A stretch of DNA of 15,132 nucleotides from an uncultured Deinococcales bacterium (GCA_964247135.1 CAXTTL010000118.1:1-15132), one strand, 5' to 3'. Positions 1 through 15,090 are shown, counted from the stretch's first letter. The notes: generated by a model not told the origin, from the sequence alone. Numbers and translations are program-made.

Positions 1-772
1 CAACAGCAAACAATGCCAAAACGAAATACCGCAAGTACGAAACCCATGCCAAATGGCGGACACTATCAGGAATCAAGCCAGAGGCGAAATACACGCCAAA
101 CACCAATACCAAACCGACCAGCGTCACCAAAACCCGAGTCAGCCAGGTTTTGGGCACCTCAAAATCAGCGCTCGAGATGAGAAACGCCACCGCCACCCCG
201 AGCGAGCGGGCAACGTCCAGACCAGCAAAAAACGCAACAACCAAACCCAGAATCACCGCAATGACTTTCGCCGTCAGGTTCAAAACGGGAACCTCGAGCC
301 GAGACGCGATCACGCTGACCAGCAAACCGATCCCAAGCCCAATCAGCACGTCCTGGGCGAAATGAACCGCCAAGTAAACCCTCGAGAATCCGATAACCAG
401 CGCCATCAAAACGCAAAGAGCAACAAACCAAGTTCTGGGATGCTTTTCTGCCAGAAAACCCCAAACGAACGCCGCGTTTTGAGCGTGACCGCTGGGCATC
501 CCGCCACCGCCAGCGGTCGCCATCGCCTTGGCACTCGCCAGCCCTGGCGCGAGTTCATACGGACGCTGGGTGTGAAACAACAGTTTTAAACCCGTATTGA
601 GTGCCACATTGATGCCAAACCAAAACCCCAACTGCCGACCTATTTTTGGCGAAACCAACCATGAATACAACGCCAGCACAGCAATATAGGTATTTTCAGA
701 ACCGAGATTGGTGATGAACAACATCAGGTTCTCGAGCGAACCGTTGCCGCGAACAAACAAAATGGTTTCCAT
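1..772 (-). CDS. PAP2 family membrane phosphatase (3' end runs off the window)
   Basis: Not in the ORF track because it has no stop in the window. My translation from ATG at 772 gives METILFVRGNGSLENLMLFITNLGSE...LKLLFHTQRP...MPSGHAQNA...IGFSRVYLAVHFAQDV, containing the three PAP2 motifs (Kx6RP, PSGH, SRxxxxxHxxxD) plus several hydrophobic helices. Confidence 0.9.
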   Translation of the reverse strand, partial: METILFVRGNGSLENLMLFITNLGSENTYIAVLALYSWLVSPKIGRQLGFWFGINVALNTGLKLLFHTQRPYELAPGLASAKAMATAGGGGMPSGHAQNAAFVWGFLAEKHPRTWFVALCVLMALVIGFSRVYLAVHFAQDVLIGLGIGLLVSVIASRLEVPVLNLTAKVIAVILGLVVAFFAGLDVARSLGVAVAFLISSADFEVPKTWLTRVLVTLVGLVLVFGVYFASGLIPDSVRHLAWVSYLRYFVLALFAV

Positions 773-913
773 ACAAACATGAGCTTAACCCGTGATTGAA
801 TCACAACGACAGTCCGAGCTTTGAATCTTGAACAATTGAATTCGATAGCCTGTAGACTGGCGCTCGAGGTCAGTCAGATGCCGTCACTCCCCATTGACAT
901 GACAGGAGTTTTT

Positions 914-1273
914 ATGAATTTGATTGCCAGTGTTTTGGTCGGTTTGGTCGCGCTGGAGCATCTTTTCTTTTTGATCCTCGAGATGTTTTTGTGGCAATCA
1001 AAGGTGGCGGCAAGGGCATTTAATTTGACCCCCGATTTTGCCGCCCAGTCCAAAGCGATGGCAGCCAATCAAGGTTTGTACAACGGCTTTTTGGCGGCTG
1101 GTTTGATTTGGGGTTTGTTGCCTGGCACTGCGGGGTTTGACGTCAAAATATTTTTCTTGGCTTGTGTGATCGTTGCAGGCGTTTTTGGGGCAGTGACCGT
1201 CAGTCCCAGAATTTTGTTTGTTCAAGCCATTCCTGCTGCGTTAGCCATGTTGTTCGTGTTTTTGGCAAAATGA
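914..1273 (+). CDS. DUF1304 family membrane protein
   Basis: AGGAG RBS at 904-908 before ATG 914. The protein has LVALEHLFFLILEMFLW and the characteristic ANQGLYNGFLAAGL and IFFLACVIVAGVFGA segments. Confidence 0.85.
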   Translation: MNLIASVLVGLVALEHLFFLILEMFLWQSKVAARAFNLTPDFAAQSKAMAANQGLYNGFLAAGLIWGLLPGTAGFDVKIFFLACVIVAGVFGAVTVSPRILFVQAIPAALAMLFVFLAK

Positions 1274-1833
1274 ACCAGATTTCGGGCGCAATTCTGACAG
1301 GGGGACGTTCGAGCCGATTTGGGCGTGACAAAGCCCTGGAAGTTTGGCACGGAAAGACGCTGCTCGAGCACGTTGCGGCGGCGCTCGAGGGATGTCAAGA
1401 TCGTTTTATCGTTGGAGGAAACCTCGAGCGGTACGGTTTTCTAGATTTGCCCGTTTACCCTGACCTCGAGTTACATCAAGGCAGTTTGTGCGGTCTGTCT
1501 CGAGCGCTCGAACTTTCAACATGCCCTCGAGTGGCGATCAGCGCTTGTGACACGCCGAATTTAACCAGAAAGTATTGGGAATTTTTGGCGAACTTTTCAG
1601 AATTCGAGATTGTGATTCCAGAGAATTCAGATGGTTTTCTCGAGCCGCTGGCGGCAATCTACAGCAAAAATTGTTTAGCGCACGTTCAATCGGCGCTCGA
1701 GGTCGAAAATCTCAAAATGACAGGATGGTTTTCGGAACTCGAGGTTCGGATTGTGAAATGGTCTGAACTCGAGGGGCATTTCAAACCCAGTCTTTTTTTG
1801 AACGCCAACACGCCAAACGATTTACTCGGCTGA
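1270..1833 (+). CDS. mobA: Molybdenum cofactor guanylyltransferase
   Basis: ATGA overlap with the upstream gene. Motifs GAILTGGRSSRFGRDKA, ACDTP and EPLAAIYS, plus C-terminal FLNANTPNDL. Confidence 0.88.
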   Translation: MNQISGAILTGGRSSRFGRDKALEVWHGKTLLEHVAAALEGCQDRFIVGGNLERYGFLDLPVYPDLELHQGSLCGLSRALELSTCPRVAISACDTPNLTRKYWEFLANFSEFEIVIPENSDGFLEPLAAIYSKNCLAHVQSALEVENLKMTGWFSELEVRIVKWSELEGHFKPSLFLNANTPNDLLG

Positions 1834-2490
1834 GCGGTCGGTCAAATCCAGTTCTTCCAAAGGCTCGAGTTTTTCTGGTTGCGCGTCAATTTTTGTTTCT
1901 TTATCTTCTTCGTCCGAAAAGACGCCGATACGCATACCCTTGCCAGATTTTCCACCGCTGTATTGCTCAAATTCGGGTTCGGACTCGAGCCAGCGCCGCG
2001 CGAAGAACAACAGCAATTCTCGAGTGAAAAACATAAACGTCAGCAAGCCAAAGGCGTCAACCTGCAAGCGAAAAATGGTGACGAAGAACAAGACCCCGAC
2101 GATCACCGCGTCCGAGACCGCCGCCAGTGCCCTGGCGTAAATTTCAAAGGTGCGTTCGTCCATTTTCTCTTGCTCGGCAAACAGGGTAACCAGCATGGCG
2201 GCGCCAATCCAGAGGTAAGCAATGTTTTGGGTCATTGCAAAACCAGCCAGCGCGACCCCTGTGGTGAGCATCAGGATTTGCGGCGTCATCAAGCGGTCCC
2301 TGAGGTTGCGAACGTCAACATCGATGTCAAGACTGCTTTTGCCGTCAGAAGTGCGCCGCACAAAACGCCTCGCCAGGGCGGTTGGTGAAACCACCAACAA
2401 GATTGATGGCAGGGTGATGGCACGCAGCAAGAAAAAGATCACCAGGTAAAAATTCGCGCAAAAAAGCAGCAAACCAAAAATAAAACTCAT
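1822..2490 (-). CDS. Hypothetical multi-pass membrane protein with a DER motif (DUF2178-like by inference) and an acidic C-terminal tail
   Basis: 222-aa ORF with about 5 hydrophobic segments and EKMDERTFEIYARA. Its start overlaps the XRE stop codon (ATGA, 2487-2490). Confidence 0.75.
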   Translation of the reverse strand: MSFIFGLLLFCANFYLVIFFLLRAITLPSILLVVSPTALARRFVRRTSDGKSSLDIDVDVRNLRDRLMTPQILMLTTGVALAGFAMTQNIAYLWIGAAMLVTLFAEQEKMDERTFEIYARALAAVSDAVIVGVLFFVTIFRLQVDAFGLLTFMFFTRELLLFFARRWLESEPEFEQYSGGKSGKGMRIGVFSDEEDKETKIDAQPEKLEPLEELDLTDRSAE

Positions 2491-2687
2491 GTGGTTTTCT
2501 CCTCGAGAAAAATCTCTTCAATTTTTTGTTGAAAAAGCCTGGCGAGTTTGAACGCCAAAGGCAAACTCGGGTCGTATTTCCCAGTCTCGAGCGCGTTGAC
2601 GGTTTGACGGCTGACCCCAAGCTCGTCTGCCAGATCGGCTTGCGACCAGCGTTTGACGGCGCGGAGTTCTCGGATGCGATTTTCCAT
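2487..2687 (-). CDS. Small XRE-family (HTH_3, COG1476-like) transcriptional regulator
   Basis: MENRIRELRAVKRWSQADLADELGVSRQTVNALETGKYDPSLPLAFKLARLF. ATG at 2687 overlaps the M48 peptidase stop (TGATG). Confidence 0.93.
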   Translation of the reverse strand: MENRIRELRAVKRWSQADLADELGVSRQTVNALETGKYDPSLPLAFKLARLFQQKIEEIFLEEKTT

Positions 2688-3841
2688 CAGGTGACAGCGA
2701 TTCCTTTGCTGGCAGCCCAAGCGCGAGCGGCGGCGATGCGTTTTTCGATGCTTGGATGGTCATGCAACCAGAATTCGACCCAAGCTGGCGGGTTTGGGTC
2801 AGACAGGTTTTCTTTGGCGAGGCTGCGAAACGCGGCTTCAAATGCGATTGGGTTTTTGGTGATCTCGAGCGCGAATTTGTCGGCGGCGTACTCGGCGGCT
2901 CGGGTGTTGGCGTTGGTGAGCAAACTAAACAATTGCCCGACGATGGTTGCCACAAAAAAGAACACGGGCAGCGTGGCAATGTCGCTCGAGCCGCGCAAGC
3001 CACCCTGCAAACCGATGCTCGAGAATGCCCAATTTGCCAGCGCGATAATCAAGGCAAATTGCAACCACGCCAGCGCCAGCCCCTTGTACAAATCCTTGTG
3101 GACTTTATGCCCGATTTCGTGTGCCAACACAACCTCGATGCCTTCAGGCTGCATACTTGCCATCAAAGTGTCCGAAATCAGGACTTCTGAACCGAAACCG
3201 TCTGGAATCAGGGCGGCATTGCCTTGTTTGGTTTTCTCGCCGAACAGCCAACGGCTGGTTTTGGTGAGCTTTACGCCAGACGCAGCAAAAATCTTTTTGA
3301 CCCGAGCCTCGAGTTCTGGGTTCTCGAGCGGCGCACTTTTAAACCGCATTTTGGCGAGCATTGGACTGATAAATAAAAGCACCGCAAAGAACACGGTCAC
3401 GCCAGCCATCGCCACCGGAAACCAGGCGTCAGGAAAGGCTCGAAAGGCGGCGTACAAACCAAACAGCAACACGGCAAAAATGGCACTCGAGGTGGCGGTT
3501 TCTTTGATGTTGTCAAGCAGCCAACCCGCAAAATTTTGTTTTAGCAAACCGAATTTTTTGCCGCTTAAAAACCCAAAATAATACGAGATTGGAAATTCCA
3601 CGAGGCTCGAGATCACAAAAAACACGACAATAAATAGAATTCTCGAGATGAAGTCCTTGTCGCCGCCGAGGGCGTCGCGCAGGCTGCTCGAGAGTCCGCC
3701 GTACACCCAGACGAAAAAGAACACGACAGCCAAGACCAGTCCCAAAATGCTCGAGATCACGTTCTCTTGCTCTCGGGCGCGGGCTTTGGCGAGGTCGGTT
3801 CCGGTCAATATTGCGGGTTGTGGGTTTTCAGTATTCGTCAT
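2687..3841 (-). CDS. M48 family (Ste24/CAAX-protease-like) membrane zinc metallopeptidase
   Basis: HEIGH zinc motif, AEYAADKFA third-ligand region, C-terminal DHPSIEKRI, and N-terminal transmembrane helices. Confidence 0.92.
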   Translation of the reverse strand: MTNTENPQPAILTGTDLAKARAREQENVISSILGLVLAVVFFFVWVYGGLSSSLRDALGGDKDFISRILFIVVFFVISSLVEFPISYYFGFLSGKKFGLLKQNFAGWLLDNIKETATSSAIFAVLLFGLYAAFRAFPDAWFPVAMAGVTVFFAVLLFISPMLAKMRFKSAPLENPELEARVKKIFAASGVKLTKTSRWLFGEKTKQGNAALIPDGFGSEVLISDTLMASMQPEGIEVVLAHEIGHKVHKDLYKGLALAWLQFALIIALANWAFSSIGLQGGLRGSSDIATLPVFFFVATIVGQLFSLLTNANTRAAEYAADKFALEITKNPIAFEAAFRSLAKENLSDPNPPAWVEFWLHDHPSIEKRIAAARAWAASKGIAVT

Positions 3842-3869
3842 GCGTTTATTCTTTCAGAAATGCCTTGGG

Positions 3870-4895
3870 CTATGCGAGTTTCTCGAGGATGGTATCCGTA
3901 TTGCCTTGCCAGACCGTTGCGGCGTGATACGGCTCAAATCCAAGTTCAATGTTGATTTTGAGCATGGCGGCGTTGGTGTCGGCATTGCCTGTGCGAACAA
4001 ATTTGGTTTCAGGATTCAGTCGCAACATCGCCTGAAGGTTTGCCGCCTTCAACCATCGCCCCAATCCTTGATTGCGATGCTCGAGGTTTACACCCGTTGC
4101 TTCCTGAGTGACAATACTGGCACGGGTTGGATGCCACTCGAGTTCGGTGTAGCCCGCGAATTCGCCGGTGGTGCGGTGCTTAACGTAACTGACGATTCGT
4201 TTGCCACCAGCCCCGAATTTGACTTTTTCCATGTCACGAATGACCTCTGGGCTGATGTGCTGGTCTTCCATCTCGAGGTCACCTTTTGGTTGTGTGTTCA
4301 TGACGTCCATCAATTTGCTGAACGCCAAAATATCAACCTCTGGAATTGCGCCATCCCAACTGCCCAACTCGTAATCTGAGGCTCGGGTTTGAGCAGCTTT
4401 GATCCAAGTTTCCAGTTTATCAGTCTCGAGGTTGGCAACCTCGAGTTGGCTGACCTTGGTTTCCATGCCACGACCAAAACCATAATGCTCGAGAAAGCTT
4501 TCGCCGGCTGGGATTTTGTCATGGCTAAAGGCAAGCAAAAGGCTACGGTTTGCATTTTTTGCGGTTTCGCACACCTGTTTGAGAATGGTTGATCCCAAAC
4601 CTTTGTTGCGGTGTTCGGGCACAACCTGAATGTTACATTGTGCCATGTGTTGGTTATCGGGCAGGTGAACAATTTGCAAATTTGCAAAACCGATGGCGCC
4701 GTTGTTCGCTCGAGCCAGCCAAATATGAACCTCGACAAAATCGGGCATGTTCTTAAATTCTTGAATTCGCACTTCGGGTTGAGCTGGTGGATCATTTGGG
4801 TGTGTTTCTGTGCGCAATGTATTACTCAGTTCGGTGAATTCTCTAATTTCGGTTTCAGAGATGGATTTTGCCGTGTGTTGTGTAATCTCAAACAT
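3870..4895 (-). CDS. Tandem-domain GNAT N-acetyltransferase
   Basis: Two acetyl-CoA binding motifs (VVPEHRNKGLGS and VNLEHRNQGLGRWLK) plus NADTNAAMLKINIELGF. Start placed at ATG 4895 (MFEITQH). Confidence 0.9.
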   Translation of the reverse strand: MFEITQHTAKSISETEIREFTELSNTLRTETHPNDPPAQPEVRIQEFKNMPDFVEVHIWLARANNGAIGFANLQIVHLPDNQHMAQCNIQVVPEHRNKGLGSTILKQVCETAKNANRSLLLAFSHDKIPAGESFLEHYGFGRGMETKVSQLEVANLETDKLETWIKAAQTRASDYELGSWDGAIPEVDILAFSKLMDVMNTQPKGDLEMEDQHISPEVIRDMEKVKFGAGGKRIVSYVKHRTTGEFAGYTELEWHPTRASIVTQEATGVNLEHRNQGLGRWLKAANLQAMLRLNPETKFVRTGNADTNAAMLKINIELGFEPYHAATVWQGNTDTILEKLA

Positions 4896-5088
4896 GTTTT
4901 TGCACCTGAACTTTTCCAGTAATCTCGAGGCTACCAATTGTTAAAGCGCGAAGCTCGAGGATCAAAGTCCTGATGGCGAGCTGAAGGTTTTTGAGGTGCT
5001 CCCGACGAATTGGCTCGAGGATGTTGTGAAGTGATGCCTCGTAGTGAAGTTGCTCGAGTTTGAATGGCGTGTTTTGGAAACTGTTCAT
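4888..5088 (-). CDS. Small hypothetical protein (66 aa), first gene of the GNAT/M48/XRE cluster
   Basis: AAGGGAAC RBS-like sequence before ATG 5088 (MNSFQNTPFKLEQLHYEASLHNILEPIRREHL...). Its stop overlaps the GNAT start by 8 bp. Confidence 0.55.
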   Translation of the reverse strand: MNSFQNTPFKLEQLHYEASLHNILEPIRREHLKNLQLAIRTLILELRALTIGSLEITGKVQVQKHV

Positions 5089-5121
5089 GGTGTTCCCTTT
5101 CGACATCCTCGAATCTCGAGG

Positions 5122-5203
5122 TGTCAATGTTGCTTGACATCAATGTAAAGGAAGCTTGGCTTTTTGTCAAGTGTAATTGTCAGAATGTCATTTTTACTTG
5201 ACA
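5122..5203. promoter_or_regulatory. Array of four 18-bp palindromic operator-like boxes (TGTCA-N8-TGACA type)
   Basis: TGTCAATGTTGCTTGACA 5122-5139; TGTAAAGGAAGCTTGGCT 5144-5161 (degenerate); TGTCAAGTGTAATTGTCA 5165-5182; TGTCATTTTTACTTGACA 5186-5203. They lie in the divergent intergenic region and contain TTGACA hexamers on both strands. Confidence 0.7.
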
Positions 5204-5233
5204 CACTCGAGTCGCTTGTTAAACTATCCCCCG

Positions 5234-6127
5234 ATGCAACCAGACGCCACACCAACCACCAAAGCCTACGCCCGCCCCAACACCGCACGGCTGCTGATTT
5301 CCTGCCCAGATCGGCGCGGTATCGTCGCCGCCGTCTCGCAATTCTTGTACAGCCACAACGCCAACATCATGTCCAGCGATCAGCACAGCACCGACCCCGA
5401 AGGCGGCACGTTTTTCATGCGCCAAGAATTTCATTTGGAAGGTTTGGATTTGACCAAATCCCAATTCGAGAAAACCTTCCAGGAAGTCGTTGCCACCCCG
5501 TTTGGCATGGACTGGAAGGTCTGGTACGCCTCTGAACCCAAACGCATGGCAATCCTGTGCAGCAAATACGATCACTGCATCATGGATTTGCTCTGGCGGG
5601 TGCGGCGCGGCGAATTTGACGCCGAAATTCCATTTGTCATTTCCAACCACCAAGACCTCGAGCCTGACGTGCACACCTTCGGCATTCCATTTCATTACGT
5701 GCCAGTCGAAAAGGCTGACAAAGCCAGCAGTGAGCAAAAAATTCTCGAGCTGTTAAAAGGCAACGCCGATTTTGTGGTTTTGGCACGCTACATGCAAATT
5801 CTGTCGGGCGATTTTCTCGATCAAACCCAGATGCCCGTCATCAACATTCACCACAGCTTTTTGCCCGCGTTCATCGGCGCGAACCCGTACAAAAGCGCCC
5901 TGGCTCGAGGTGTCAAACTGGTGGGCGCAACCGCGCATTACGTGACCGCCGAACTCGACGCTGGACCCATCATCGAACAAGATGTCGCCCGGGTTTCGCA
6001 CCGCGATGACGTGAAAGCCCTGACCAGAATTGGGCGCGACATCGAACGCAATGTTTTGGCTCGAGCGGTCAAAGCGCATCTCGAGGATCGGGTGTTGGTG
6101 CATCAGAATAAGACGGTCGTGTTTTAA
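5234..6127 (+). CDS. purU: Formyltetrahydrofolate deformylase
   Basis: N-terminal ACT domain ([16 protein letters not shown]), [50 protein letters not shown], and C-terminal NKTVVF. Confidence 0.97.
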
Positions 6128-6130
6128 AAC

Positions 6131-6165
6131 AAAAAAGCCGTGAGCGTTGATGCTCACGGCTTCTC
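6131..6165. terminator. Intrinsic terminator-like hairpin between convergent purU and the SBP gene
   Basis: 11-bp stem AAGCCGTGAGC (6135-6145) / GCTCACGGCTT (6152-6162). The preceding A-tract gives a U-tract on the minus strand. Confidence 0.8.
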
Positions 6166-6178
6166 GAGATTTTTAAAA

Positions 6179-7162
6179 TTATTTTGCTTGAACGTTTTTC
6201 AAGTAAATATTGGTGTAAAACGTGCTGCGCTTGGCAGGCTTCGGCAGGCGTCCCACCGATTTCAGAAGATCAATCGCGCTTTGCCAACCATTCGGATTGC
6301 TAAAACCAATCCCTTCGGCTTCGGTAAACGCGCTCTGGTACAACGGAATGCTCGCCTCGAGCACCTTCATGCCCTCGTCACCCAAGTTTTGCACAAATTT
6401 CTTGCTGGCTTCAAAGGCGACCTTGGGGGTTTTGATGGTGGTGACCATCGCGTCCTGATTTGCCGCCAAAAATGCCTTCACAAGTTCTGGTTTCTCGAGG
6501 TTGGCGTCGGTGGTGATCACGCCAACGCCTGGGGCGCGGTTGTACTTGGCGGCAGGAATCACGTTTAGTTTAATGTTTTGCGCGGCGGCTTTGACGGGTT
6601 CGTTGTTGATGAAGCCCATCGCCACGTCCACACGATCTGCCACGACCGCCTCGAGTTGAGTAAAGCCAATCTCGAGAATCTTGACATCGGATTCCTTCAG
6701 TTTGGCGGTTTTGAGCGTGGCTTGCAGGCTCGTCCAGGAGTTGCCGTACTTGCCTGGAATGCCGATGGTCTTGCCTTTCAGGTCTTTGATGGTTTTGATG
6801 TTTTTTTCTGCCTTGCTGAACAGGGCATTTGGCACGTTTTGATACAATGCCATGACGTATTTGAACGGCGCGGCTTTGGCGTTTTCGGAGCGCAACAAGA
6901 CCACATCCTCGGCGTCGGCAACGACATAATCGAGCTTGCCAGCCGCCAGCAGCGGATACAGTTCGTTGGTGAACCCGTGCTGGAATTCGACCTCAAAACC
7001 GGCTTTTTTGTACGCGCCACTGGTTTGTGCCAAATAAAACGGAGCAAATTGCACGTCTGGTAAATAACCCAGACCCACTTTGATCTTGGTGGTTCCAGTT
7101 TGCGAGAACGCGATGGGGGAGAGCACGACGGCGGTCAGCAAGAACAACAACGGTTTTTTCAT
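6179..7162 (-). CDS. ABC transporter substrate-binding protein, NMT1/THI5 family (RibY-like; vitamin or precursor ligand plausible)
   Basis: Signal peptide MKKPLLFLLTAVVLSPIAFS, then GLGYLPDVQFAPFYLA, DLKGKTIGIPGKYG and IGFTQLEAVVADRVDVAMGFINNEP. GAGG RBS upstream. Confidence 0.85.
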   Translation of the reverse strand: MKKPLLFLLTAVVLSPIAFSQTGTTKIKVGLGYLPDVQFAPFYLAQTSGAYKKAGFEVEFQHGFTNELYPLLAAGKLDYVVADAEDVVLLRSENAKAAPFKYVMALYQNVPNALFSKAEKNIKTIKDLKGKTIGIPGKYGNSWTSLQATLKTAKLKESDVKILEIGFTQLEAVVADRVDVAMGFINNEPVKAAAQNIKLNVIPAAKYNRAPGVGVITTDANLEKPELVKAFLAANQDAMVTTIKTPKVAFEASKKFVQNLGDEGMKVLEASIPLYQSAFTEAEGIGFSNPNGWQSAIDLLKSVGRLPKPAKRSTFYTNIYLKNVQAK

Positions 7163-7311
7163 GGTTTACCTCACCCAAACTCGAGCCTCAAACCCGAGGA
7201 AGAAAACGAAAGACTGTAAAACTCGGGGCACGACCCGAGCCAGTGTAACGCGTGCGTATGAAAATCTTGAAGTCCACGTCACGATTCGCGCTTGGGCGTT
7301 AGAATTGACCC

Positions 7312-8265: not shown

Positions 8266-8367
8266 TTCCTCGAGTCTCGGATTGCAAGTGTGGGGTTGCA
8301 GTCAAACGCCCCGCGTCAAATCCTGGTAAATTGATTGGTCGAGTCGGAATTCGACCTTTCAACCTGT

Positions 8368-9993
8368 ATGCAACGCACATCCTCTCAAACCAGAGCTAAA
8401 ATCTCGAGTTTCAAACCTCGGGTGGGTCGTCCCGCGCCAAAAACGTTTTTGATTCCGGCGCTTCTGGCGTGTTTGGCGGTCTTGATTCCGTTGGCGTACC
8501 TGGTATTGCGGGCGCTCGAGGCGAATCCAAAAGACTTGCTCGAGATTGTTTTCAGGTTGCGCAACCTCGAGTTGTTGGGGAAGACCGTGGCGCTTGGCTT
8601 GGGCGTGGTGCTGGCTTGCAGCCTGATTGCCCTGCCGCTGGCTTGGTTGACCGCCAGAACCAACATTGCCGCCAAAGGTGTCTTGACCCTGATCGGTGTC
8701 TTGCCGCTCGCCGTTCCAGGGTATGTCGGCGCGTATGCCATGCTCGCCGCGACGGGTCAAAACGGGGTGCTCGAGAAAATGTTTGGCATCAATATTCCCA
8801 GACCCGAAGGTTATTTTGGGGCGCTCGGCGTGCTGGCGTTGTTCAGTTTTCCGTATTTGTATTTAAACCTCTGGAATGCCCTGCGCGGACTTGACCCGAG
8901 CCTCGAGGAATCAGGGCGCAGTTTGGGATTGTCTGCCTGGCAAGTCTTTTGGCGCGTGATCCTGCCGCAATTGCGTCCCGCTTGGTTGTCTGGCGCGTTG
9001 TTGATCGCCTTGCACGTTTTGGGCGATTTTGGCGTGGTGTCCTTAACCCAATACGAGACTTTCTCGAGCGCCATTTATGTTCAATACAATGCCGCCTACG
9101 ACCGCGTTTATGCCGCTTGGCTCGGCTTGATGCTGCTCGCCATCACCGTCGGCACGCTCGCGCTCGAGTCACGGTTTTTGCGCAACATTCGCCTCTCGAG
9201 GGTCGGTTCTGGCGTGGCGCGACATCAAAGCATGGCGCAGTTGGGAAAATGGACGCTGCCCGCCTTTGGTTTTGTACTCGCCATCGCCATTGCAACCTTG
9301 GTGATTCCGCTTGGCACCATCGTTTACTGGTTGCTCGGCAGTGCCGCGCCGGATTGGCAAGCCTTGTTTTTCGCCGTGCAAAATTCGGCTTTCGCCGCCG
9401 CGCCAACTGCCCTGGTTGCCACCTTTTTTGCCGTGCCGCTGGCAATTTTGGGAACCCGTTACGGTGGTACGTTTACACGCCTGCTCGAGCGAAGCGCTTA
9501 CTTGGGTTATGCCACGCCGCCGCTCGCCTTGGCGTTGGCGTTCGTCTTTTTCAGTTTGCGGGTGATTCCAGATTTGTATCAAACCCTGAGCTTGCTGGTG
9601 ATCGCCTTGACCATTCACTTTCTTGCCGAAGCCATCGGACCGATTCGCGCCAGCTTGTTGCAAGCCAACCCGAAGCTCGAGGAAGCCGCCCGAGGCTTGG
9701 GATTCACTTCACTTCAAGCCTTCGCCAGGGTGACCTTGGTGCTGATTCGTCGCGGATTGCTGACCAGTTTGGCGTTGGTGTTTTTATCGTGCCTCAAAGA
9801 ATTGCCGATCACCTTTTTGCTGTCCCCCATCGGTTTTGATACCCTCTCGAGACAAATTTTTGGTTTTACCTCCGAATCCATGTTTGCCCAAGCCGCGCCG
9901 TATGCCCTCGCCATCGTGATCGCCTCGAGTTTGATGGTCGGTCTGGTTTTGAGGCAAGAACAAGCCAGCAACGTTGTTAGAAAGTCTCCATGA
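8368..9993 (+). CDS. Fe3+-type ABC transporter permease (FbpB/FutB-like, fused double domain)
   Basis: Two EAA loops (LEESGRSLG and LEEAARGLG), LPLAVPGYVGAY, and LKELPITFLLSP. The start is uncertain; ATG 8368 was chosen. Confidence 0.9.
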   Translation: MQRTSSQTRAKISSFKPRVGRPAPKTFLIPALLACLAVLIPLAYLVLRALEANPKDLLEIVFRLRNLELLGKTVALGLGVVLACSLIALPLAWLTARTNIAAKGVLTLIGVLPLAVPGYVGAYAMLAATGQNGVLEKMFGINIPRPEGYFGALGVLALFSFPYLYLNLWNALRGLDPSLEESGRSLGLSAWQVFWRVILPQLRPAWLSGALLIALHVLGDFGVVSLTQYETFSSAIYVQYNAAYDRVYAAWLGLMLLAITVGTLALESRFLRNIRLSRVGSGVARHQSMAQLGKWTLPAFGFVLAIAIATLVIPLGTIVYWLLGSAAPDWQALFFAVQNSAFAAAPTALVATFFAVPLAILGTRYGGTFTRLLERSAYLGYATPPLALALAFVFFSLRVIPDLYQTLSLLVIALTIHFLAEAIGPIRASLLQANPKLEEAARGLGFTSLQAFARVTLVLIRRGLLTSLALVFLSCLKELPITFLLSPIGFDTLSRQIFGFTSESMFAQAAPYALAIVIASSLMVGLVLRQEQASNVVRKSP

Positions 9994-11027
9994 GTTTACT
10001 CAGCATCAAAAACCTTTCCAAAAGTTTTCACCGCTCGGGTACACCCACCGTCAACGACATGGGTTTCAACCTCAAGTCGGGACAAATTGTGGCACTGCTT
10101 GGACCCAGCGGTTGCGGCAAAACCACGACCTTGCGGCTGATTGCCGGTTTTGAGCGCCCAGATGCAGGCAGCATTTCGCTCGAGGATTCGGTCTTGTACG
10201 GCGCTGGTGTGGACGTGCCGCCCGAACGTCGCGGCATCGGTTTTGTCTTTCAAGATTACGCGCTGTTCCCGCATCTGACCGTGCTCGAGAATGTCACGTT
10301 CGGACTCTTAAACCTCAAAAAACCAGAACGGCTCGAACGCGCTCGAGAGGTCTTGGGCATGGTCGGATTGCTGGTGTTTCAAGACCGTTTGCCCTCGCAA
10401 CTTTCTGGCGGGCAGCAGCAACGGGTGGCGCTGGCGCGGGCGCTCGCGCCGCATCCAAAACTGATTTTGCTCGACGAACCATTCTCGAGCCTGGACGCGA
10501 ATTTGCGTGCCAGCACGCGTCTCGAGGTGCGGCGGATTCTCGAGGCTTTTGGCGCCACGGCGCTCTTGGTCACGCACGATCAAGAGGAAGCCATGAGTTT
10601 TGCCGACCGCATTATTGTCATGCGCGACGGCTCGATTGAACAAGACGGCACCCCCGAAAGTGTTTACGGGCAACCTCGAACGGCGTTCGTCGCCAATTTT
10701 CTGGGGCGCACCAATTTGATTCCCGCTCGAGCCTCAGGAAGCTTTGCCATGGGTATTTTGGGACTTGTGCCGCTTACGCACTCCGCAAGCGGTCCTGTGA
10801 TGCTCTCAGTGCGCCCTGAGAGCCTGAAGCTGGGGTCTGAGGGACTGGCGGCAAAAGTCACCGCCCGAGAGTTCAAAGGACACGATTTAACCTACACGCT
10901 TGAGGCTGGGAACGTGCAACTGGTCGTGCAAACCGATCACACAAATTCCTTGCAGGTTGGTGATGGCACGTTCGTCAAACTCGAGGGTCCAGCCGTGGTG
11001 GTTCGCGGCAGCGAAAAAAAGATTTGA
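9990..11027 (+). CDS. Fe3+/polyamine-type ABC transporter ATP-binding protein (FbpC-like) with C-terminal TOBE-like region
   Basis: Walker A GPSGCGKT, FQDYALFPH, LSGGQQQR signature, Walker B LLDEPFS, and VTHDQEEA. ATGA overlap with the permease. Confidence 0.93.
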   Translation: MSLLSIKNLSKSFHRSGTPTVNDMGFNLKSGQIVALLGPSGCGKTTTLRLIAGFERPDAGSISLEDSVLYGAGVDVPPERRGIGFVFQDYALFPHLTVLENVTFGLLNLKKPERLERAREVLGMVGLLVFQDRLPSQLSGGQQQRVALARALAPHPKLILLDEPFSSLDANLRASTRLEVRRILEAFGATALLVTHDQEEAMSFADRIIVMRDGSIEQDGTPESVYGQPRTAFVANFLGRTNLIPARASGSFAMGILGLVPLTHSASGPVMLSVRPESLKLGSEGLAAKVTAREFKGHDLTYTLEAGNVQLVVQTDHTNSLQVGDGTFVKLEGPAVVVRGSEKKI

Positions 11028-11035
11028 GAAAACAG

Positions 11036-11064
11036 TTTAAATCTTGACCAACCTCGAGTACACT
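11036..11064 (+). promoter_or_regulatory. Possible sigma70-type promoter for the unknown membrane protein
   Basis: TTTAAA (11036-11041), 17-bp spacer, TACACT (11059-11064), followed by GGAGG RBS at 11072-11076. Confidence 0.35.
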
Positions 11065-11082
11065 TCACCCTGGAGGTGTTCG

Positions 11083-12483
11083 ATGCAGCAAGTTCAGCCC
11101 AGAAGTTCAAGCCTCAACTTCAAACCCATTTTGACCACCGTGGGCGCGTTGACCGTGGTCGTGGCGCTGGTCAACTGGGGCGGCACCGCCAAGCCAGGAC
11201 CGATGTTCGTGCTCGGCGTGGGCGTCTTGACCGCCATGCTTGCCGCCCTCGGCGCTGCAATCTGGTACCTGTTCGTTTCAAAGCTTCCGACAAATGCTCG
11301 GGTCGCCCCAACCCGCTCGAGCCTGATGACCCGTTCTCTGGCGGGTGTGCTCGCCGTCTCGAGCGGACTGATGTTCTCGGTGGCGCTGGTCTGGGATGAA
11401 ACCTGGCATCACCGTTACGGCGGTTTTGGCAACGATTTTTTGTGGTCGCCGCATTTTTTGCTTTACGGCTCACTGGCGATTCTGGCGTTTTTTGCCAGCG
11501 CCGGAATCTTGTTTCTGGCATTGCAAGGTCAGGGCGGCATCCGCGAACGCTTCCGCGCCGAACCTTTGATTGGCTTGCTGGCATTGATCGCCCTGTTTCA
11601 AACCGCCGCCGCGCCATCGGATTTGCTGTGGCACAAGATTTACGGCGTTGACCTGACCGCATGGAGCTTGCCACACCTGATGCTTTTCGGCGGCGTGTCT
11701 TTTGTCATGATGTGCGCCGTTCCACTGACCCTCTCGGGCGTCCCGCAAGCCGCCTGGCGCGGATTGCAAGCTTTAAGACTCCAAGAATGGCTGGCAATTG
11801 CGCTGTTCAGTTTTGCGGGCACACTCATGATGATCGTGCTCGCCGCCGAATGGGAGGGTATTTCCAGCCTGCCCGATTTTGGCTCGAGTAACCTTCGCGC
11901 CTTCTGGCAACGCCCAGAATGGTTGTACCCCGTGGTGCTCATCACCTGCGGCGGATTCCTGGGCAGCGTCGCGCAAAACGCCCTCAAACGTGTCGGCGTC
12001 TCGAGCATCGTTGGCATTTTAATTGTGCTGCATCGCTTGGTGACCGTCGCCATTTTTGGCGGGGCGCAAGAAGGTCTGGCGGCAAACTCTCAACTGATGG
12101 TGCTGCCCGTGTTCGTGCTGCTTGATCTTTGGCAATTCTCGCGCCTGCAACGAAAACGTCAACCCGCCTGGAGCGCCAGCGGCGCCATGATCGTCGCCGC
12201 CGCATCATTAATCATCATCTTGCCTGCCATCTCGAGCCTGCTGATTTACCCCAGAATCAACGCCTCCACCTTGCCCATGATGATCGTCATGAGCCTCATC
12301 ATGATGCTTGCCTCGAGTTGGGCGGGATCGAACCTCGGCGCATGGCTCTCAACCCTCGGAGAGCGCCCGAACGCCCTTGAAGCCACACCAAGAAACTCGA
12401 GTGTTGTGCCAGCGGCGGGCGTTCTGACGGCACTCGTTTTGGTCGCCGTCGCCATTTTGACCGCCAAACCACCGACGCTCTGA
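11083..12483 (+). CDS. Hypothetical polytopic membrane protein with two DxxWH...PH motifs
   Basis: GGAGG RBS before ATG 11083. About 12 or more hydrophobic segments. Motifs WDETWHHRYG...WSPH and SDLLWHKIYG...WSLPH. Confidence 0.85.
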   Translation: MQQVQPRSSSLNFKPILTTVGALTVVVALVNWGGTAKPGPMFVLGVGVLTAMLAALGAAIWYLFVSKLPTNARVAPTRSSLMTRSLAGVLAVSSGLMFSVALVWDETWHHRYGGFGNDFLWSPHFLLYGSLAILAFFASAGILFLALQGQGGIRERFRAEPLIGLLALIALFQTAAAPSDLLWHKIYGVDLTAWSLPHLMLFGGVSFVMMCAVPLTLSGVPQAAWRGLQALRLQEWLAIALFSFAGTLMMIVLAAEWEGISSLPDFGSSNLRAFWQRPEWLYPVVLITCGGFLGSVAQNALKRVGVSSIVGILIVLHRLVTVAIFGGAQEGLAANSQLMVLPVFVLLDLWQFSRLQRKRQPAWSASGAMIVAAASLIIILPAISSLLIYPRINASTLPMMIVMSLIMMLASSWAGSNLGAWLSTLGERPNALEATPRNSSVVPAAGVLTALVLVAVAILTAKPPTL

Positions 12484-12633
12484 CACCCAAAAATAATCGT
12501 ATACCCAAACATGAAATTGCACTGTGAAATTTCTCGAGGCGCAATTCACAAAGCGGGTGTAGATTGATTTCACCGGCTTTACTACCTCAACCAAATCCTT
12601 TTCTTATGGCGAAGCCGGATTGAAAGGGGCATC

Positions 12634-13179
12634 ATGAACGTTTACAAGCTTGTAGGGCAAAACGTTGAAGTCACCGACGGAATGCGCGACCACGTTCAAA
12701 CCAGACTCGAACGGCTAGAGCGTTTCAGTCAACACATTGTGGACGCCAAAGTCGTGTTGCACGTCAAAGCCTCGAGCGAAGCCAACCGAAAAAACCGCGT
12801 CGAAATGCAGCTCAACGTTCCGCACGGCATTATTCGCGCCGAAGAAGCCAGCCACGACATGTACTACGCCATCGATGCCGCCACAGAAGTGCTCGAGCGT
12901 CAACTGAAAAAATTTAAGGACAAGTTCGTGACCCGAACCCACCGCCCAGACGCGCCCCCGCCTGAGACGGCAACCGATTTTGATGACAGCGAAGAGTTCT
13001 TGCCGCAAATTGTGCGCAACAAACGCTTTGAACTTCGCCCGATGGATGTCGAAGATGCCGCTGCGCAAATGGAAGCTTTGGGACACGATTTTTACGTGTT
13101 CAGCAATCCCAAAACCCAGAATGTGAACGTGGTGTACAAGCGTCGAGATGGGCATTATGGCTTGATCGAACCGCATTGA
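12634..13179 (+). CDS. hpf: Ribosome hibernation promoting factor, long form (RaiA/HPF)
   Basis: GQNVEVTDGMRDHV, DMYYAIDAATEVLERQLKKFK, and C-terminal domain PMDVEDAAAQMEALGHDFYVF...VVYKRRDGHYGLIE. Confidence 0.95.
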   Translation: MNVYKLVGQNVEVTDGMRDHVQTRLERLERFSQHIVDAKVVLHVKASSEANRKNRVEMQLNVPHGIIRAEEASHDMYYAIDAATEVLERQLKKFKDKFVTRTHRPDAPPPETATDFDDSEEFLPQIVRNKRFELRPMDVEDAAAQMEALGHDFYVFSNPKTQNVNVVYKRRDGHYGLIEPH

Positions 13180-13193
13180 GTTTGAAGCTCGAG

Positions 13194-13231
13194 AAACCAG
13201 AAAACCCCGTGATGAACGGGGTTTTTGGTTT
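13194..13231. terminator. Bidirectional terminator-like hairpin (hpf terminator); copy 1 of the CCCCGTGA..CGGGG repeat family
   Basis: AAACCAGAAAACCCCGT-GATGA-ACGGGGTTTTTGGTTT, 15 bp after the hpf stop. Confidence 0.85.
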
Positions 13232-13282
13232 GTAAATCTAGTTCGTTTTATAAACTCGGGATCAAGCATCAAGATGTTCTTG

Positions 13283-13470
13283 TGAAACCGAATGCTAAAC
13301 TCGAGGCAGCCTTGAAAAGTGCTAAACCTCCGATGACTGCTGAAATGTTGGATCGGAAGATATACAACACTGAGGATGAAAGAATGGCTTTTCAAGATGC
13401 AATGACTGAGATTCAAACTGAAAAAGATCAAGCTCGAGGGGAAATTTTGCTTGTTGAAATGGAGAAATAA
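13283..13470 (+). CDS. Small acidic hypothetical protein or gene remnant, translationally coupled to the HEPN gene (start uncertain)
   Basis: Open frame ...KPNAKLEAALKSAKPPMTAEMLDRKIYNTEDERMAFQDAMTEIQTEKDQARGEILLVEMEK. TAATG overlap with the next gene. No clear RBS or start codon. Confidence 0.4.
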
Positions 13471-14237
13471 TGCCTGGAAAGAATCTTGAAGAGATGGAAG
13501 AAATTTTACGCAACATTGGAGAAACCTCAGAAGAAATAGCGAACTTTAAGCAAGAATTTGGAAAAACCCCTGAAGACATGAAGGCAATTTTACGCGAATC
13601 TGGAAAATTTGGTGAAGAAATAGTTAAGCGTTTTGGTTCAGATTTTCATAGAGTAAATAATTTGTTAACAGCTTATGATGTTCTATCGATGGTAGAAAAT
13701 GTTAACAGAGATGATATTTTAAGAAGTGCTGTAGTTTTATTACACGCTATTTTAGAGGATACACTAAGGACAAATGCAGTTGTAATTTACCCAACTTTAT
13801 CAAAGGAAGTGATCGATACTATCCCACTGGCAGGGTTTCAGAAACGCCCTGGAAAGATTTCACTAGGAGATTTAGCGGAATTTCGAGGGAAAAATACCGA
13901 TGAAATAATCAAGGAATCTGTTTATACATATTTTCAAGAATCTAATTTTAATAGCACTAGAGATATTGCTGATCTTATAACTAAAATTGGTCTTAATTGC
14001 GATGAATTCAGGCAATATTTTCCGTTACTAAGTGATATGATCAGTAGAAGACATAGAATTGTCCATCTAGGTGATAGAATTGAATTATCAATTGACGAAA
14101 ATTTACATCCAGAAAATATTGAAAAGAGTTTAGTTTTACTATGGATTACAAATACTTGTAGATTCGTGTTTAGCTTTACTCAAAATGTTTTTAAGATTCG
14201 TTACCGTGAATTTTATATTGCACAAGGGTGGGAATAA
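13470..14237 (+). CDS. HEPN-domain protein (RiboL-PSP-HEPN/MAE_28990-like), predicted RNase or toxin
   Basis: DILRSAVVLLHAILED helix, S-N-F-N-S segment, and RRHRIVH (R-x4-H) at 14046-14066. GGAG RBS. Strongly AT-rich relative to the flanks. Confidence 0.75.
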   Translation: MPGKNLEEMEEILRNIGETSEEIANFKQEFGKTPEDMKAILRESGKFGEEIVKRFGSDFHRVNNLLTAYDVLSMVENVNRDDILRSAVVLLHAILEDTLRTNAVVIYPTLSKEVIDTIPLAGFQKRPGKISLGDLAEFRGKNTDEIIKESVYTYFQESNFNSTRDIADLITKIGLNCDEFRQYFPLLSDMISRRHRIVHLGDRIELSIDENLHPENIEKSLVLLWITNTCRFVFSFTQNVFKIRYREFYIAQGWE

Positions 14238-14266
14238 ACCCCTAAAGAATTAGATAAAAAGATTTT

Positions 14267-14303
14267 GAGAAATAATAAAACCCCGTGATGAGCGGGGTTC
14301 TCA
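14267..14303. terminator. Terminator-like hairpin between the convergent HEPN and SDR genes; copy 2 of the repeat family
   Basis: AAAACCCCG-TGATGAG-CGGGGTT at 14277-14299, 22/23 identical to 13201-13223. Confidence 0.8.
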
Positions 14304-14314
14304 GTTGCACAAGA

Positions 14315-15049
14315 TCAAGTCAACGATTCAGCCATCGTCCGCATCTGAATCTCAATAATCCTCGAGTTGCTCGATTGCGTACACGCCAGCAAAGTTGCGG
14401 CTGCCACATCTTCAGGCTCGAGCATGTTGGAAGCTGCCACGCCGTCTTCGGTGCGTCCTTTGCCGATGGCGAATTCGGTTTTGACGCCACCAGGACAGAT
14501 CACACCGACTTTAATGCCGTGCGGACGTAATTCTTTGTCGAGCGCTTGGGCAAATCCAACCTGCGCAAATTTGGTGGCGCAGTACACGGCTTCGCCTGCG
14601 AAACCGTAAATGCCTGCCATGCTCGAGATCATGATGACCGTGCCTGATTTTTGCTCGATCATGCTGGGTACAAGATGACGGGCGAACAAGAAGGTGGATT
14701 TGACGTTGGAATCCATCATTTCGTCGTAATCCTCGAGGCTGGTGTCCACCAGGTTTTTGTAATTGCCGACGCCTGCGTTGTTGATCAAAATATCAACGTG
14801 TCCAAAACTTTCAATGGCGGCTTTTTGCGCCGCGATGGCGGTTTGTTCCTCTCGAGCGTCACCTTCGACCGCAACGGCTTGACCGCCTGCGGCTTGGATG
14901 GCTTTGACCATTTCGTCTAAACGCGTTTTGCGTCGTGCGACCAACACCAGTTTTGCGCCCTCGGCGGCGAACGCCTCGGCGCAAGCTTTACCAATGCCTG
15001 CACTTGCACCTGTGATAACTGCGACTTTTCCTTCAAGCTTGTTTCCCAT
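14315..15049 (-). CDS. Short-chain dehydrogenase/reductase (SDR)
   Basis: TGASAGIG, NNAG, SS and YCATK catalytic motif. AAGG RBS upstream. Confidence 0.95.
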   Translation of the reverse strand: MGNKLEGKVAVITGASAGIGKACAEAFAAEGAKLVLVARRKTRLDEMVKAIQAAGGQAVAVEGDAREEQTAIAAQKAAIESFGHVDILINNAGVGNYKNLVDTSLEDYDEMMDSNVKSTFLFARHLVPSMIEQKSGTVIMISSMAGIYGFAGEAVYCATKFAQVGFAQALDKELRPHGIKVGVICPGGVKTEFAIGKGRTEDGVAASNMLEPEDVAAATLLACTQSSNSRIIEIQMRTMAESLT

Positions 15050-15090
15050 AAATACCTTCTTTCTCGAGATGATCCGAATAAAGCCGTGAA

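Follow-up and report, generated by a model that had tools for sequence, protein, structure and literature searches.

CTCGAG is a highly iterated palindrome in an uncultured family of the Deinococcales

The window analysed here is the whole of a 15,132-bp stretch of DNA (GCA_964247135.1 CAXTTL010000118.1:1-15132) from an uncultured Deinococcales bacterium. It is contig C118 of a genome that we call G000, a metagenome-assembled genome (MAG) of 5,091,702 bp in 386 contigs, 84% complete and with a GC content of 52.7%. The gene map of the window consists of 15 open reading frames (ORFs), 12 of which have Pfam matches. What sets this DNA apart is the palindrome CTCGAG, which occurs exactly 108 times, the first site being at 171, the last at 15063-15068 and the mean spacing ~140 bp. 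A first-pass annotation had put the number at about 108, with the same positions, and the iteration at about 25-fold, and had proposed a highly iterated palindrome comparable to the cyanobacterial HIP1. Count and positions were right, and the proposal has stood: the palindrome is abundant throughout the genome and the family, occurs in all frames, survives shuffled controls and holds its positions between species.

The 93 genic sites are found in 15 genes, on both strands and in all three frames (CTC-GAG 56, xCT-CGA-G 11, xxC-TCG-AGx 26), while the 15 intergenic sites have a density of 10.5 per kb. This agrees with the both-strand, multi-frame and intergenic occurrence described earlier, and eight of the nine sites then called intergenic are indeed so; the ninth, at 11053, is inside an ORF (11044-12483) if the TTG start of the latter is real. 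The sites and genes of the window that matter for what follows are these:

171-15068, no strand: the dispersed CTCGAG sites (n=108).
1267-1833, plus strand: MobA-like NTP-transferase gene, the densest of the window with 10 sites (17.6 per kb).
4954-5211, no strand: intergenic stretch 5' of purU with five sites (4954, 5014, 5053, 5115, 5206).
5657-5662, plus strand: CTC-GAG (Leu-Glu) site in purU, alignment column 423, shared by 13 of 15 family orthologues, with CTTGAA or CTTGAG in the others.
5744-5749, plus strand: purU site, column 513, in 11 of 15 orthologues; alternatives CTTGAG, TTAGAA and CTCAAG.
6080-6085, plus strand: purU site, column 897, in 11 of 15 orthologues; alternatives CTTGAA, TTGGAG and CTTGAG.
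6163-6168, no strand: intergenic site where purU and the gene of an NMT1-like binding protein converge.
12533-12538, no strand: intergenic site upstream of a hibernation-factor-like gene.
13470-14237, plus strand: HEPN (RiboL-PSP) gene, GC 33%, with no CTCGAG in its 768 bp and native genes on both sides.

When the window was shuffled 200 times with its dinucleotides preserved, the mean was 2.84 sites (standard deviation 1.66, largest 8), and none of the 200 shuffles reached 108. Enrichment confined to the window, which would have spoken against the HIP1-like proposal, is ruled out, as all contigs of G000 longer than 5 kb carry 2.6-10.5 sites per kb. The whole genome has 33,925 sites, or one per 150 bp, making up 4.0% of all bases; this is 24.75x the expectation from composition, as the ~25-fold estimate had anticipated, and 14.4x that from a second-order Markov model. 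No hexamer in G000 is more frequent than CTCGAG; the ranks below are taken by its own overlapping words, and the first hexamer independent of it, GGTTTT/AAAACC, has 11,958 occurrences. The depletion of palindromic sites, which the first-pass annotation had cited for most bacteria, holds strongly in G000, where palindrome avoidance is extreme: of the 64 palindromic hexamers, ~30 fall short of 0.12x expectation (depleted more than 8-fold), with counts in 5.09 Mb of 0 for GAGCTC, 1 for GGGCCC, 3 for CGGCCG, 4 for AGGCCT, 5 for CGTACG and 7 for GGATCC, and the tetramers GGCC and CTAG stand at 0.02x and 0.07x. CTCGAG is the sole palindromic outlier toward excess.

Could codon usage, a preference for certain dipeptides or base composition produce such an excess as a mere by-product? 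The Leu-Glu frame does account for a large part of the coding sites (56 of 93 in the window and 17,398 of 27,942 genome-wide), and codon use alone gives 2-8x in high-GC genomes of other phyla. Genes in G000 were called as longest ORFs with an iterated codon-usage score, giving 4,332 genes that cover 84% of the DNA; the 4,324 without N made up the shuffle set, the calling being crude and having some errors, also in the window. Synonymous codons were shuffled within genes so that the proteins, their dipeptides and the codon usage of each gene stayed the same; 20 such shuffles averaged 3,934 sites (largest 4,079) against the 27,942 observed (CTC-GAG 17,398; xCT-CGA-G 4,207; xxC-TCG-AGx 6,337). 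The excess is thus 7.1x overall and persists in every frame (5.7x, 13.7x and 11.3x, respectively), and this null is conservative because the sites themselves have already inflated the codon usage that it keeps. Moreover, the density is highest between genes: the 2,147 strict intergenic gaps (299 kb, GC 46.6%) have 8.79 sites per kb, which is 42x expectation and above the genic density. This enrichment is equal across divergent, convergent and tandem gaps (39-44x), and within genes the density is flat along their length. Outside the Leu-Glu context, Leu is encoded by CTC in only 15% of cases and Glu by GAG in 33%, and the mirror word GAGCTC (Glu-Leu) has zero occurrences in a genome whose GC is merely 53%. 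The earlier view that codon or dipeptide preference alone was unlikely to explain the sites is therefore upheld; refuted by the synonymous shuffle and the Leu-Glu codon analysis, the by-product explanation has virtually nothing left to recommend it.

The imprint extends to the proteins. There are 22,487 Leu-Glu dipeptides in G000 against 9,502 expected from amino-acid frequencies, a ratio of 2.37x that is the highest of any dipeptide, with Glu-Leu at 1.01x, and 77.4% of them are written CTCGAG compared with 5.0% predicted from codon use elsewhere. In the long ORFs of other loci, a noisy set, Leu-Glu stands at 2.63x in the family and at 1.13x in other phyla. The pressure for CTCGAG fixes this codon pair in 77% of Leu-Glu and adds ~13,000 extra Leu-Glu to the proteome; it outweighs synonymous constraints and some amino-acid constraints. 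Within the window, the protein of the MobA-like NTP-transferase gene (1267..1833) is conspicuously Leu-Glu-rich. As a side observation, a 351-aa open frame (2526-3581, plus strand) lies antisense to an M48 peptidase gene; long antisense frames are frequent in G000, and CTCGAG, which holds no stop codon in any frame, may contribute to them.

A scan of 250 genomes of the phylum, with family and genus labels taken from the tool, places this phenomenon in one family, f1. All 19 f1 genomes, from five genera, carry 4.3-6.8 CTCGAG per kb, with 12,028-35,442 sites in each of the 18 besides G000; one of these, G011, is a single contig of 5.1 Mb with 23,515 sites. Likewise, the 15 nearest PurU loci in public genomes, all titled Deinococcales or Deinococcota MAG and with 77-97% protein identity, have 4.6-8 sites per kb, observed/expected ratios of 20-32 and a GC of 45-57%, whereas 42 loci of other phyla have 0-2.8 per kb. 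The repetition of the count across related genomes, which the first-pass annotation had proposed, thus found enrichment in all 19 genomes and all 15 loci. An assembly, binning, adaptor or library artefact might have been suspected, G000 being a fragmented MAG that is not complete. However, the density is the same in the 18 other f1 genomes, in the 15 differently binned and differently named MAG loci and in the single-contig G011, and the sites are in frame at conserved alignment columns of real genes; an artefact is ruled out about as firmly as such things can be. We conclude that this uncultured Deinococcales family has a true highly iterated palindrome in CTCGAG and that the pressure behind it operates in every f1 member.

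The other four families of the order have mostly 0.01-3.5 CTCGAG per kb; several high-GC genera with 2-3.5 per kb are not counted here because GC-matched controls reach similar densities. The Deinococcus-like genus g7 (92 genomes of 2-7 Mb) has only 26-1,010 CTCGAG per genome, with GAGCTC equally scarce, so that the word hyper-enriched in one family of the order is strongly avoided in another. These g7 counts are far below what high-GC codon usage yields in other phyla. In the Thermus-like genus g9, CTCGAG is at ~0.9 per kb and the mirror word GAGCTC is equally frequent. The one exception outside f1 is G253 (family f3, genus g36), with 24,536 sites in 3.5 Mb (7.0 per kb); its locus has a GC of 49% and an observed/expected ratio of 27, and its PurU is 59% identical to that of the window. 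Its congener G197 has 683 sites, or 0.3 per kb, at a GC of ~53%. The two make a natural with/without pair for finding the cause.

The sites show little structure beyond their six bases. Their flanks are nearly random, the strongest preferences being G at -1/C at +1 (35-39%) and A at -3/T at +3 (37-43%); GCTCGAGC makes up only 12.5% of CTCGAG sites, and TCGA outside CTCGAG is at about expectation. There is no longer repeat unit of the repetitive extragenic palindrome (REP) or miniature inverted-repeat transposable element (MITE) kind, positions four or more bases out being near background both for all sites and for 5,400 non-coding sites. The spacing was examined up to 1.5 kb, the longest contig of G000 being 116 kb. 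Genome-wide it has a mean of 148 bp, a median of 108 and a coefficient of variation of 0.96; the pair correlation is 0.3 at 6-14 bp, reaches 1 at ~70 bp and is flat beyond, and no helical or longer period is seen up to 1.5 kb. In the intergenic gaps only distances below 15 bp are depleted; since the "repulsion" at 15-65 bp vanishes between genes, it is a protein-coding effect. The sites behave as independent events, with neither clustering nor periodic spacing, and the pressure acts on the DNA itself and reads all six bases. It may be mentioned here that 8 of the 66 tRNAs predicted by aragorn contain CTCGAG, sometimes twice, some of the predictions being doubtful. These sites are partly in acceptor or anticodon stems (e.g. 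tRNA-Glu, tRNA-Asp and tRNA-Leu(GAG)), and their density in tRNA genes, ~2 per kb, is under the genome mean and well over chance.

Individual sites are retained between species far better than other words. Synteny with loci of two related species extends over ~13 kb of the window at 82-85% nucleotide identity. At the same position in these loci, 65-74% of the CTCGAG sites are retained (74-85% when the comparison is reversed), as opposed to 37-43% of all other hexamers; three shorter syntenic loci (~3-5 kb, 83-88% identity) keep 71-90% against 37-50%. The test of positional conservation in orthologues that had been suggested for this DNA was made codon-aware, using four genome pairs of 77-85% identity and control codon pairs of equal degeneracy. 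Where the amino-acid pair was conserved, CTCGAG was kept in 87 of 108 cases (81%) and the controls in 230 of 541 (43%; Fisher p 1.7e-13), while the intergenic figures are 37 of 55 (67%) and 1,669 of 5,539 (30%; p 2e-8); these p-values are optimistic because the genome pairs share query sequence. From the codon-aware data, the rate of site loss is calculated at about 1/4 to 1/3 of the background rate. Twenty conserved Leu-Glu pairs have another spelling here, and in 10 of these the relative has CTCGAG. The three purU sites listed above are common to 11-13 of 15 orthologues, across genera; their alternatives are synonymous spellings up to three changes off (TTGGAA, TTAGAA) that are patchy among close relatives, and this patchiness indicates that sites have been both gained and lost.

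Such conservation could reflect direct functional selection, the sites being bulk binding sites for an abundant, sequence-specific nucleoid protein, a Chi-like but orientation-free mark that protects self-DNA from nucleases, or an uptake or recombination signal that favours the DNA of kin. Natural transformation and the repair of numerous double-strand breaks are known from the Deinococcus and Thermus relatives, and the uniformity of CTCGAG along genes and gap types, together with its lack in acquired DNA, is reminiscent of Chi and uptake sequences. Conserved synonymous and intergenic sites are also the criterion argued for HIP1 in the accessible text of PMC5861425, and the available part of a 2026 paper proposes an uptake role for HIP1 (PMC13756078). 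On the other hand, a function that needs one site per stretch would give saturation or a preferred spacing in non-coding DNA, and there is neither; nor are the sites concentrated in convergent, terminator-bearing gaps (9.8 per kb versus 7.8-8.9 in other gap types). A 6-bp word offers an uptake receptor little discrimination, a palindrome cannot carry a Chi-type orientation, 19-33% of the sites are lost between species ~15-23% diverged, and no candidate binding protein was found. We consider direct selection rather unlikely, though not negligible.

The words one change away from CTCGAG speak to how sites decay. Between genes, the three classes of transition neighbours are enriched 2.1x, 3.1x and 2.1x (CTTGAG/CTCAAG and TTCGAG/CTCGAA being at 2.1x each), with the transversion classes at 0.2-1.1x, and we read the transition neighbours as decay products of CTCGAG sites. 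Products of C1>T and C3>T are equally common (286 versus 289), so no cytosine stands out as hypermutable. A depletion of one-off neighbours, as the signature of directed repair, is not seen; the transition neighbours are enriched instead. The very-short-patch repair of enterobacteria (Dcm and Vsr) makes CCWGG more abundant and the T:G deamination products of this site rarer. We infer a mechanism of that type here too, with biased repair coupled to a single short palindrome, but in our case CTTGAG/CTCAAG are 2x enriched rather than depleted, and the effect is an order of magnitude larger. Vsr itself was found in none of the 8 f1 genomes searched, nor in G253, but only in G196, where it adjoins a C5 methylase; a Vsr-type repair was therefore rejected, as Vsr is not found in CTCGAG-rich genomes and the deamination neighbours are enriched 2.1x.

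HIP1 comes with methyltransferases, and the first-pass annotation had suggested an orphan enzyme whose distribution would match the enrichment. G000 encodes ~10 DNA methyltransferases (beta-class N4/N6, D12, two C5, HsdM-like and three large Eco57I-like). In the METHYLTRANSFERASE test, five of them were searched by protein in 40 relatives, the enzymes of C207/C4a and C189 and the large ones of C21, C192, C112 and C169 being left out. Clear orthologues of the C36-type enzyme are present in only 2-3 of the 18 other f1 genomes, the D12-type enzyme of C320 is in six, the C5-type enzymes of C14 and C178 have three clear orthologues each, and the C4b type is in three. Two of the orthologues of the last (466 aa, methyltransferase-like) have in-frame stops (G005:C76:182942-184300 and G012:C72:42092-43402), showing that methyltransferase genes decay within f1. 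Pfam scans of five f1 genomes from five genera (PF00145, PF01555, PF02086, PF02384 and PF07669) revealed no family-wide orthologue: PF01555 was not found in the closed genome G011 nor PF00145 (C5) in G008, and the Eco57I-like, HsdM-like and D12 hits (PF07669, PF02384, PF02086) are unrelated or 23-39% identical and not orthologous. In G011, the only C5 methylase is in an operon with HD-CE and ORC/CDC6-like proteins, the D12 methylase overlaps a nuclease gene, and none of the enzymes found looks like an orphan. The scans did not include the MT-A70, EcoRI-type and phage Dam families, most of the genomes are MAGs that are 57-94% complete, and the specificity of a methyltransferase could not be read from sequence here. 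Within what was searched, then, the enzymes are sporadic and share no Pfam family across f1, and no conserved cognate orphan methyltransferase in the style of HIP1 was found; this suggestion of the first-pass annotation was not borne out.

A restriction enzyme fares no better. The XhoI-family nuclease (PF04555) was found in none of 8 f1 genomes, nor in G253, nor in G196, by a search that works, because it recovered such a nuclease in G021 at 153 bits. There (G021:C1:73699-77256) the nuclease gene is convergent with that of a 340-aa beta-class methyltransferase, the two contain no CTCGAG and there are six in the flanks; the methylase is 23-28% identical to f1 beta-class methylases over its length and up to 41% over short stretches. 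On this evidence CTCGAG was rejected, for the genomes searched, as the target of a resident XhoI-type restriction-modification system.

A different restriction-modification pair does recur in the CTCGAG-rich genomes:

G000:C320:1061-2985 (L078 407-2331): D12 methylase and SacI-family nuclease pair.
G011 L148 9684-11611: the same pair.
G253 L150 22-921: the same pair.

In G000, the D12 methylase gene overlaps by four bases that of a 364-aa SacI-family nuclease (PF09566, 29.7 bits against a cut-off of 19.3). The pair occurs in 7 of the 19 f1 genomes and in G253, at 72-93% identity and in different neighbourhoods (P450, radical SAM, G6PD); the G011 nuclease is 72% identical. The G253 methylase is 72-74% identical, well over the 59% of PurU, and the homologues in CTCGAG-poor genomes are only 28-34% identical. 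Apparently this is a mobile restriction-modification pair that moves among the CTCGAG-rich genomes. With a specificity predicted from the family name, it may explain the absence of GAGCTC, of which there are none in G000 and 3-30 in most relatives. This specificity is not established, however, because ~30 other palindromes are equally depleted and have no identified enzyme, and the relatives of the nuclease (more than 3,000, named "SacI family", "DNA adenine methylase" or "hypothetical") state no recognition site. Nor is the pair a sufficient explanation for CTCGAG, since only 7 of the 19 genomes have it.

These searches bear most directly on the possibility that CTCGAG is a methylation-linked palindrome of the HIP1 type, i.e. 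that all genomes of the lineage methylate it (as N6-methyladenine, N4-methylcytosine or 5-methylcytosine) by enzymes that are non-orthologous or of an unscanned family, and that the mark is used in methyl-directed repair, replication, regulation or transformation. Every f1 genome examined has several methyltransferases, CTCGAG methylation has been reported in other phyla, and the specificity of the D12/SacI-family pair could be CTCGAG. As far as the accessible sections of these papers go, the described highly iterated palindromes all come with a methyltransferase for their motif (PMC4390886), the boost that HIP1 gives to transformation depends on methylation (bioRxiv 10.1101/2024.09.10.611283), and Nocardia has a conserved orphan CTCGAG methyltransferase (PMC4752239). 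Against this, none of the enzymes has a family-wide orthologue (the C36, C320, two C5 and C4b types are each in a minority of the 18 genomes), some copies carry stops, G011 lacks PF01555 and has its C5 enzyme bound to an operon and its D12 enzyme paired with a nuclease, G008 has no C5 methylase, and identity among the HsdM-like and Eco57I-like hits is only 23-39%. The equal C1>T and C3>T decay gives no sign of a hypermutable methyl-cytosine. A link with methylation is possible, but on balance we doubt both that the whole lineage methylates CTCGAG and that disparate or unscanned enzymes put the mark to such uses. Even so, a methylation-guided form of the repair bias favoured below, in the manner of Elhai's model, is the chief competitor of that reading.

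What the data do show is a pressure at the level of DNA, not of codons or peptides, that creates and keeps an exact hexamer at tens of thousands of positions. The reading that we favour, with a probability of roughly 45%, is a bias of repair or conversion imposed by one CTCGAG-reading factor. A single protein would read duplex CTCGAG and tip mismatch repair or gene conversion toward the intact site, or exert an equivalent weak selection per site; polyploid and recombination-prone cells, which those of f1 probably are, would favour such a bias. If the enrichment reflects an equilibrium of mutation, selection and drift, the scaled advantage per site is ~ln(42)=3.7, weak for each site and comparable to strong codon bias, and this strength would fit biased conversion or repair and additive weak selection alike. 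We favour a repair or conversion bias because the sites show neither saturation nor spacing, because individual sites turn over, because a second, unrelated genome reaches the same equilibrium density of 6-7 per kb and its congener does not, and because the Deinococcus relatives are known to be polyploid and recombination-prone. As G253 is at an f1-like density and G197 is not, gain and loss of the reader are probably those of one transferable function. Vsr, an XhoI-type nuclease and a methyltransferase of the usual families with orthologues throughout f1 can all be dismissed as the reader in the genomes searched.

Several points weigh against a repair or conversion bias. No reader protein was found, and the mechanism is deduced from sequence pattern alone. 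The polyploidy is that of Deinococcus and Thermus, applied to f1 by analogy; the estimate of strength presupposes a mutation-selection equilibrium; and the word "transferable" refers to one pair, G253 and G197, whose labels are tool-derived. Non-orthologous enzymes could share a specificity, and enzymes could be missing from MAGs as incomplete as most of these. Positional conservation is equally expected from direct selection, and it has served as an argument against biased repair in the case of HIP1 (Xu et al., PMC5861425, in the text accessible). Finally, all of the well-studied highly iterated palindromes have a cognate methyltransferase (PMC4390886, likewise in part), which would raise the prior for a link with methylation despite the negative search. 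The three readings (repair or conversion bias, methylation, direct selection) overlap, and none is proven. A bolder form of the conversion bias is that a single transferable factor, other than a canonical methyltransferase, drives its own word through a polyploid genome by biased gene conversion and has struck at least twice in the Deinococcales. Drive of this kind is conceivable rather than probable, and the same caution applies to its supposed strikes, one in the whole f1 family and one in G253 but not in its congener G197.

The pressure has consequences for newly acquired DNA. The HEPN gene of the window (13470-14237) lies within a site-free stretch of 923 bp (13438-14361), and we read it as recently acquired DNA that the CTCGAG process has yet to mark; the insertion is perhaps a defence or toxin module. 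Other site-free genes of G000 have a GC of 26-36% and sit between genes with 18-26 sites each. DNA with fewer than two CTCGAG per kb amounts to only 38 kb in this genome, from which composition binning may have removed larger islands; it includes genes for a TraC/VirB4-like conjugation ATPase, a STAND NTPase, proteases and transporters, and no prophage was found in it. Foreign DNA enters without CTCGAG sites, and the process that adds them is slow relative to gene acquisition. The region of the TraC/VirB4-like ATPase (G000:C75:12500-19000), with 1.7 sites per kb, resembles a partly marked mobile element, and the gene of a 258-aa beta-class methyltransferase (G000:C189:4856-5632), with no sites in 777 bp where ~5 are expected, is probably a recent arrival. 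Among viral contigs, at least 120 stretches have three sites within ~100 bp; the matches listed are mostly of high GC, with GAGCTC equally common, and the sole low-GC match among them is a poly-serine repeat.

The closest known system is that of HIP1 (GCGATCGC) and its alternates, e.g. GGGATCCC and CAGGCCTG, in cyanobacteria. Both are short GC-rich palindromes, hyper-abundant throughout a lineage and found in genes in all frames as well as between them. In the accessible portions of the HIP1 literature (PMC5861425, PMC4390886, PMC13756078), its positions too are conserved beyond the synonymous or intergenic background, and its hosts otherwise avoid palindromes and are rich in restriction-modification genes. 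The excess of HIP1 is 15-300x, that of CTCGAG 24.7x over composition and 42x between genes. The differences are that CTCGAG is a hexamer and not an octamer, that its hosts are Deinococcota and not cyanobacteria, that it visibly reshapes dipeptide content, and that HIP1 has two conserved cognate methyltransferases while for CTCGAG none was found. CTCGAG is also denser, at one per 150 bp, HIP1 reaching at most ~one per 350 nt according to the part of PMC5861425 that covers it. A HIP1-type periodicity is on the scale of 10-90 kb, whereas CTCGAG spacing was compared over at most 1.5 kb.

The same six-base word has another lineage-conserved use apart from restriction in Nocardiaceae, where a conserved orphan CTCGAG methyltransferase is accompanied by clusters of the motif at the replication origin (Blow et al. 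2016, PMC4752239). To judge from the available sections of that paper, the clusters are only in the dnaA-dnaN intergenic region; in f1, by contrast, the enrichment is an even 25x genome-wide and no such enzyme was found. XhoI/PaeR7I recognise this word as well, and a real XhoI-family nuclease exists in the phylum (that of G021), but restriction targets are normally avoided and CTCGAG is enriched, with PF04555 not found in the 8 f1 genomes. Chi and the DNA uptake sequences (DUS) and uptake signal sequences (USS) are non-palindromic words of 5-12 nt that occur once per 0.4-5 kb, Chi with an orientation bias and the uptake sequences as inverted pairs in terminators. Like CTCGAG, they are in excess in native DNA, are distributed through genes and are rare in DNA of recent acquisition; they differ in that CTCGAG is palindromic, recurs every 150 bp and has no preference for a gap type. 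As a palindromic 6-mer with nearly even gap densities, CTCGAG does not belong in the class of DNA uptake or Chi-like sequences.

Our search of the literature, whose full-text coverage is thin for subscription journals and supplements, found no description of CTCGAG hyper-abundance in any organism, and the word is not mentioned in the accessible text of Elhai's paper on highly iterated palindromes (PMC4390886). Going by the available portions of the papers cited above for HIP1 (PMC5861425, PMC4390886, PMC13756078), such palindromes have been reported only from cyanobacteria so far. CTCGAG is a second and denser case, and it is outside the cyanobacteria.

The problem of highly iterated palindromes is thirty years old and still open. 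The hypotheses for them (methylation, repair, chromosome structure, uptake) are confounded with cyanobacterial biology because they were known only there. The f1 family provides an independent case, in another phylum, with a different word, a higher density and a measurable imprint on proteins. With apparently no conserved methyltransferase and a with/without pair inside one genus, the problem becomes a comparative and testable question. For work on this lineage, CTCGAG density is a sharp marker of native versus recently acquired DNA in f1-type genomes, and it will distort dipeptide statistics, codon models and binning by composition; XhoI would cut f1 DNA to ~150-bp fragments unless the sites are modified. 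If the word is indeed driven by a transferable factor, G253 and G197 together with the closed genome G011 would allow the first identification of an agent behind such a palindrome, and that agent would have rewritten 4% of the DNA of its host, recoded three quarters of its Leu-Glu pairs and added thousands of new ones.

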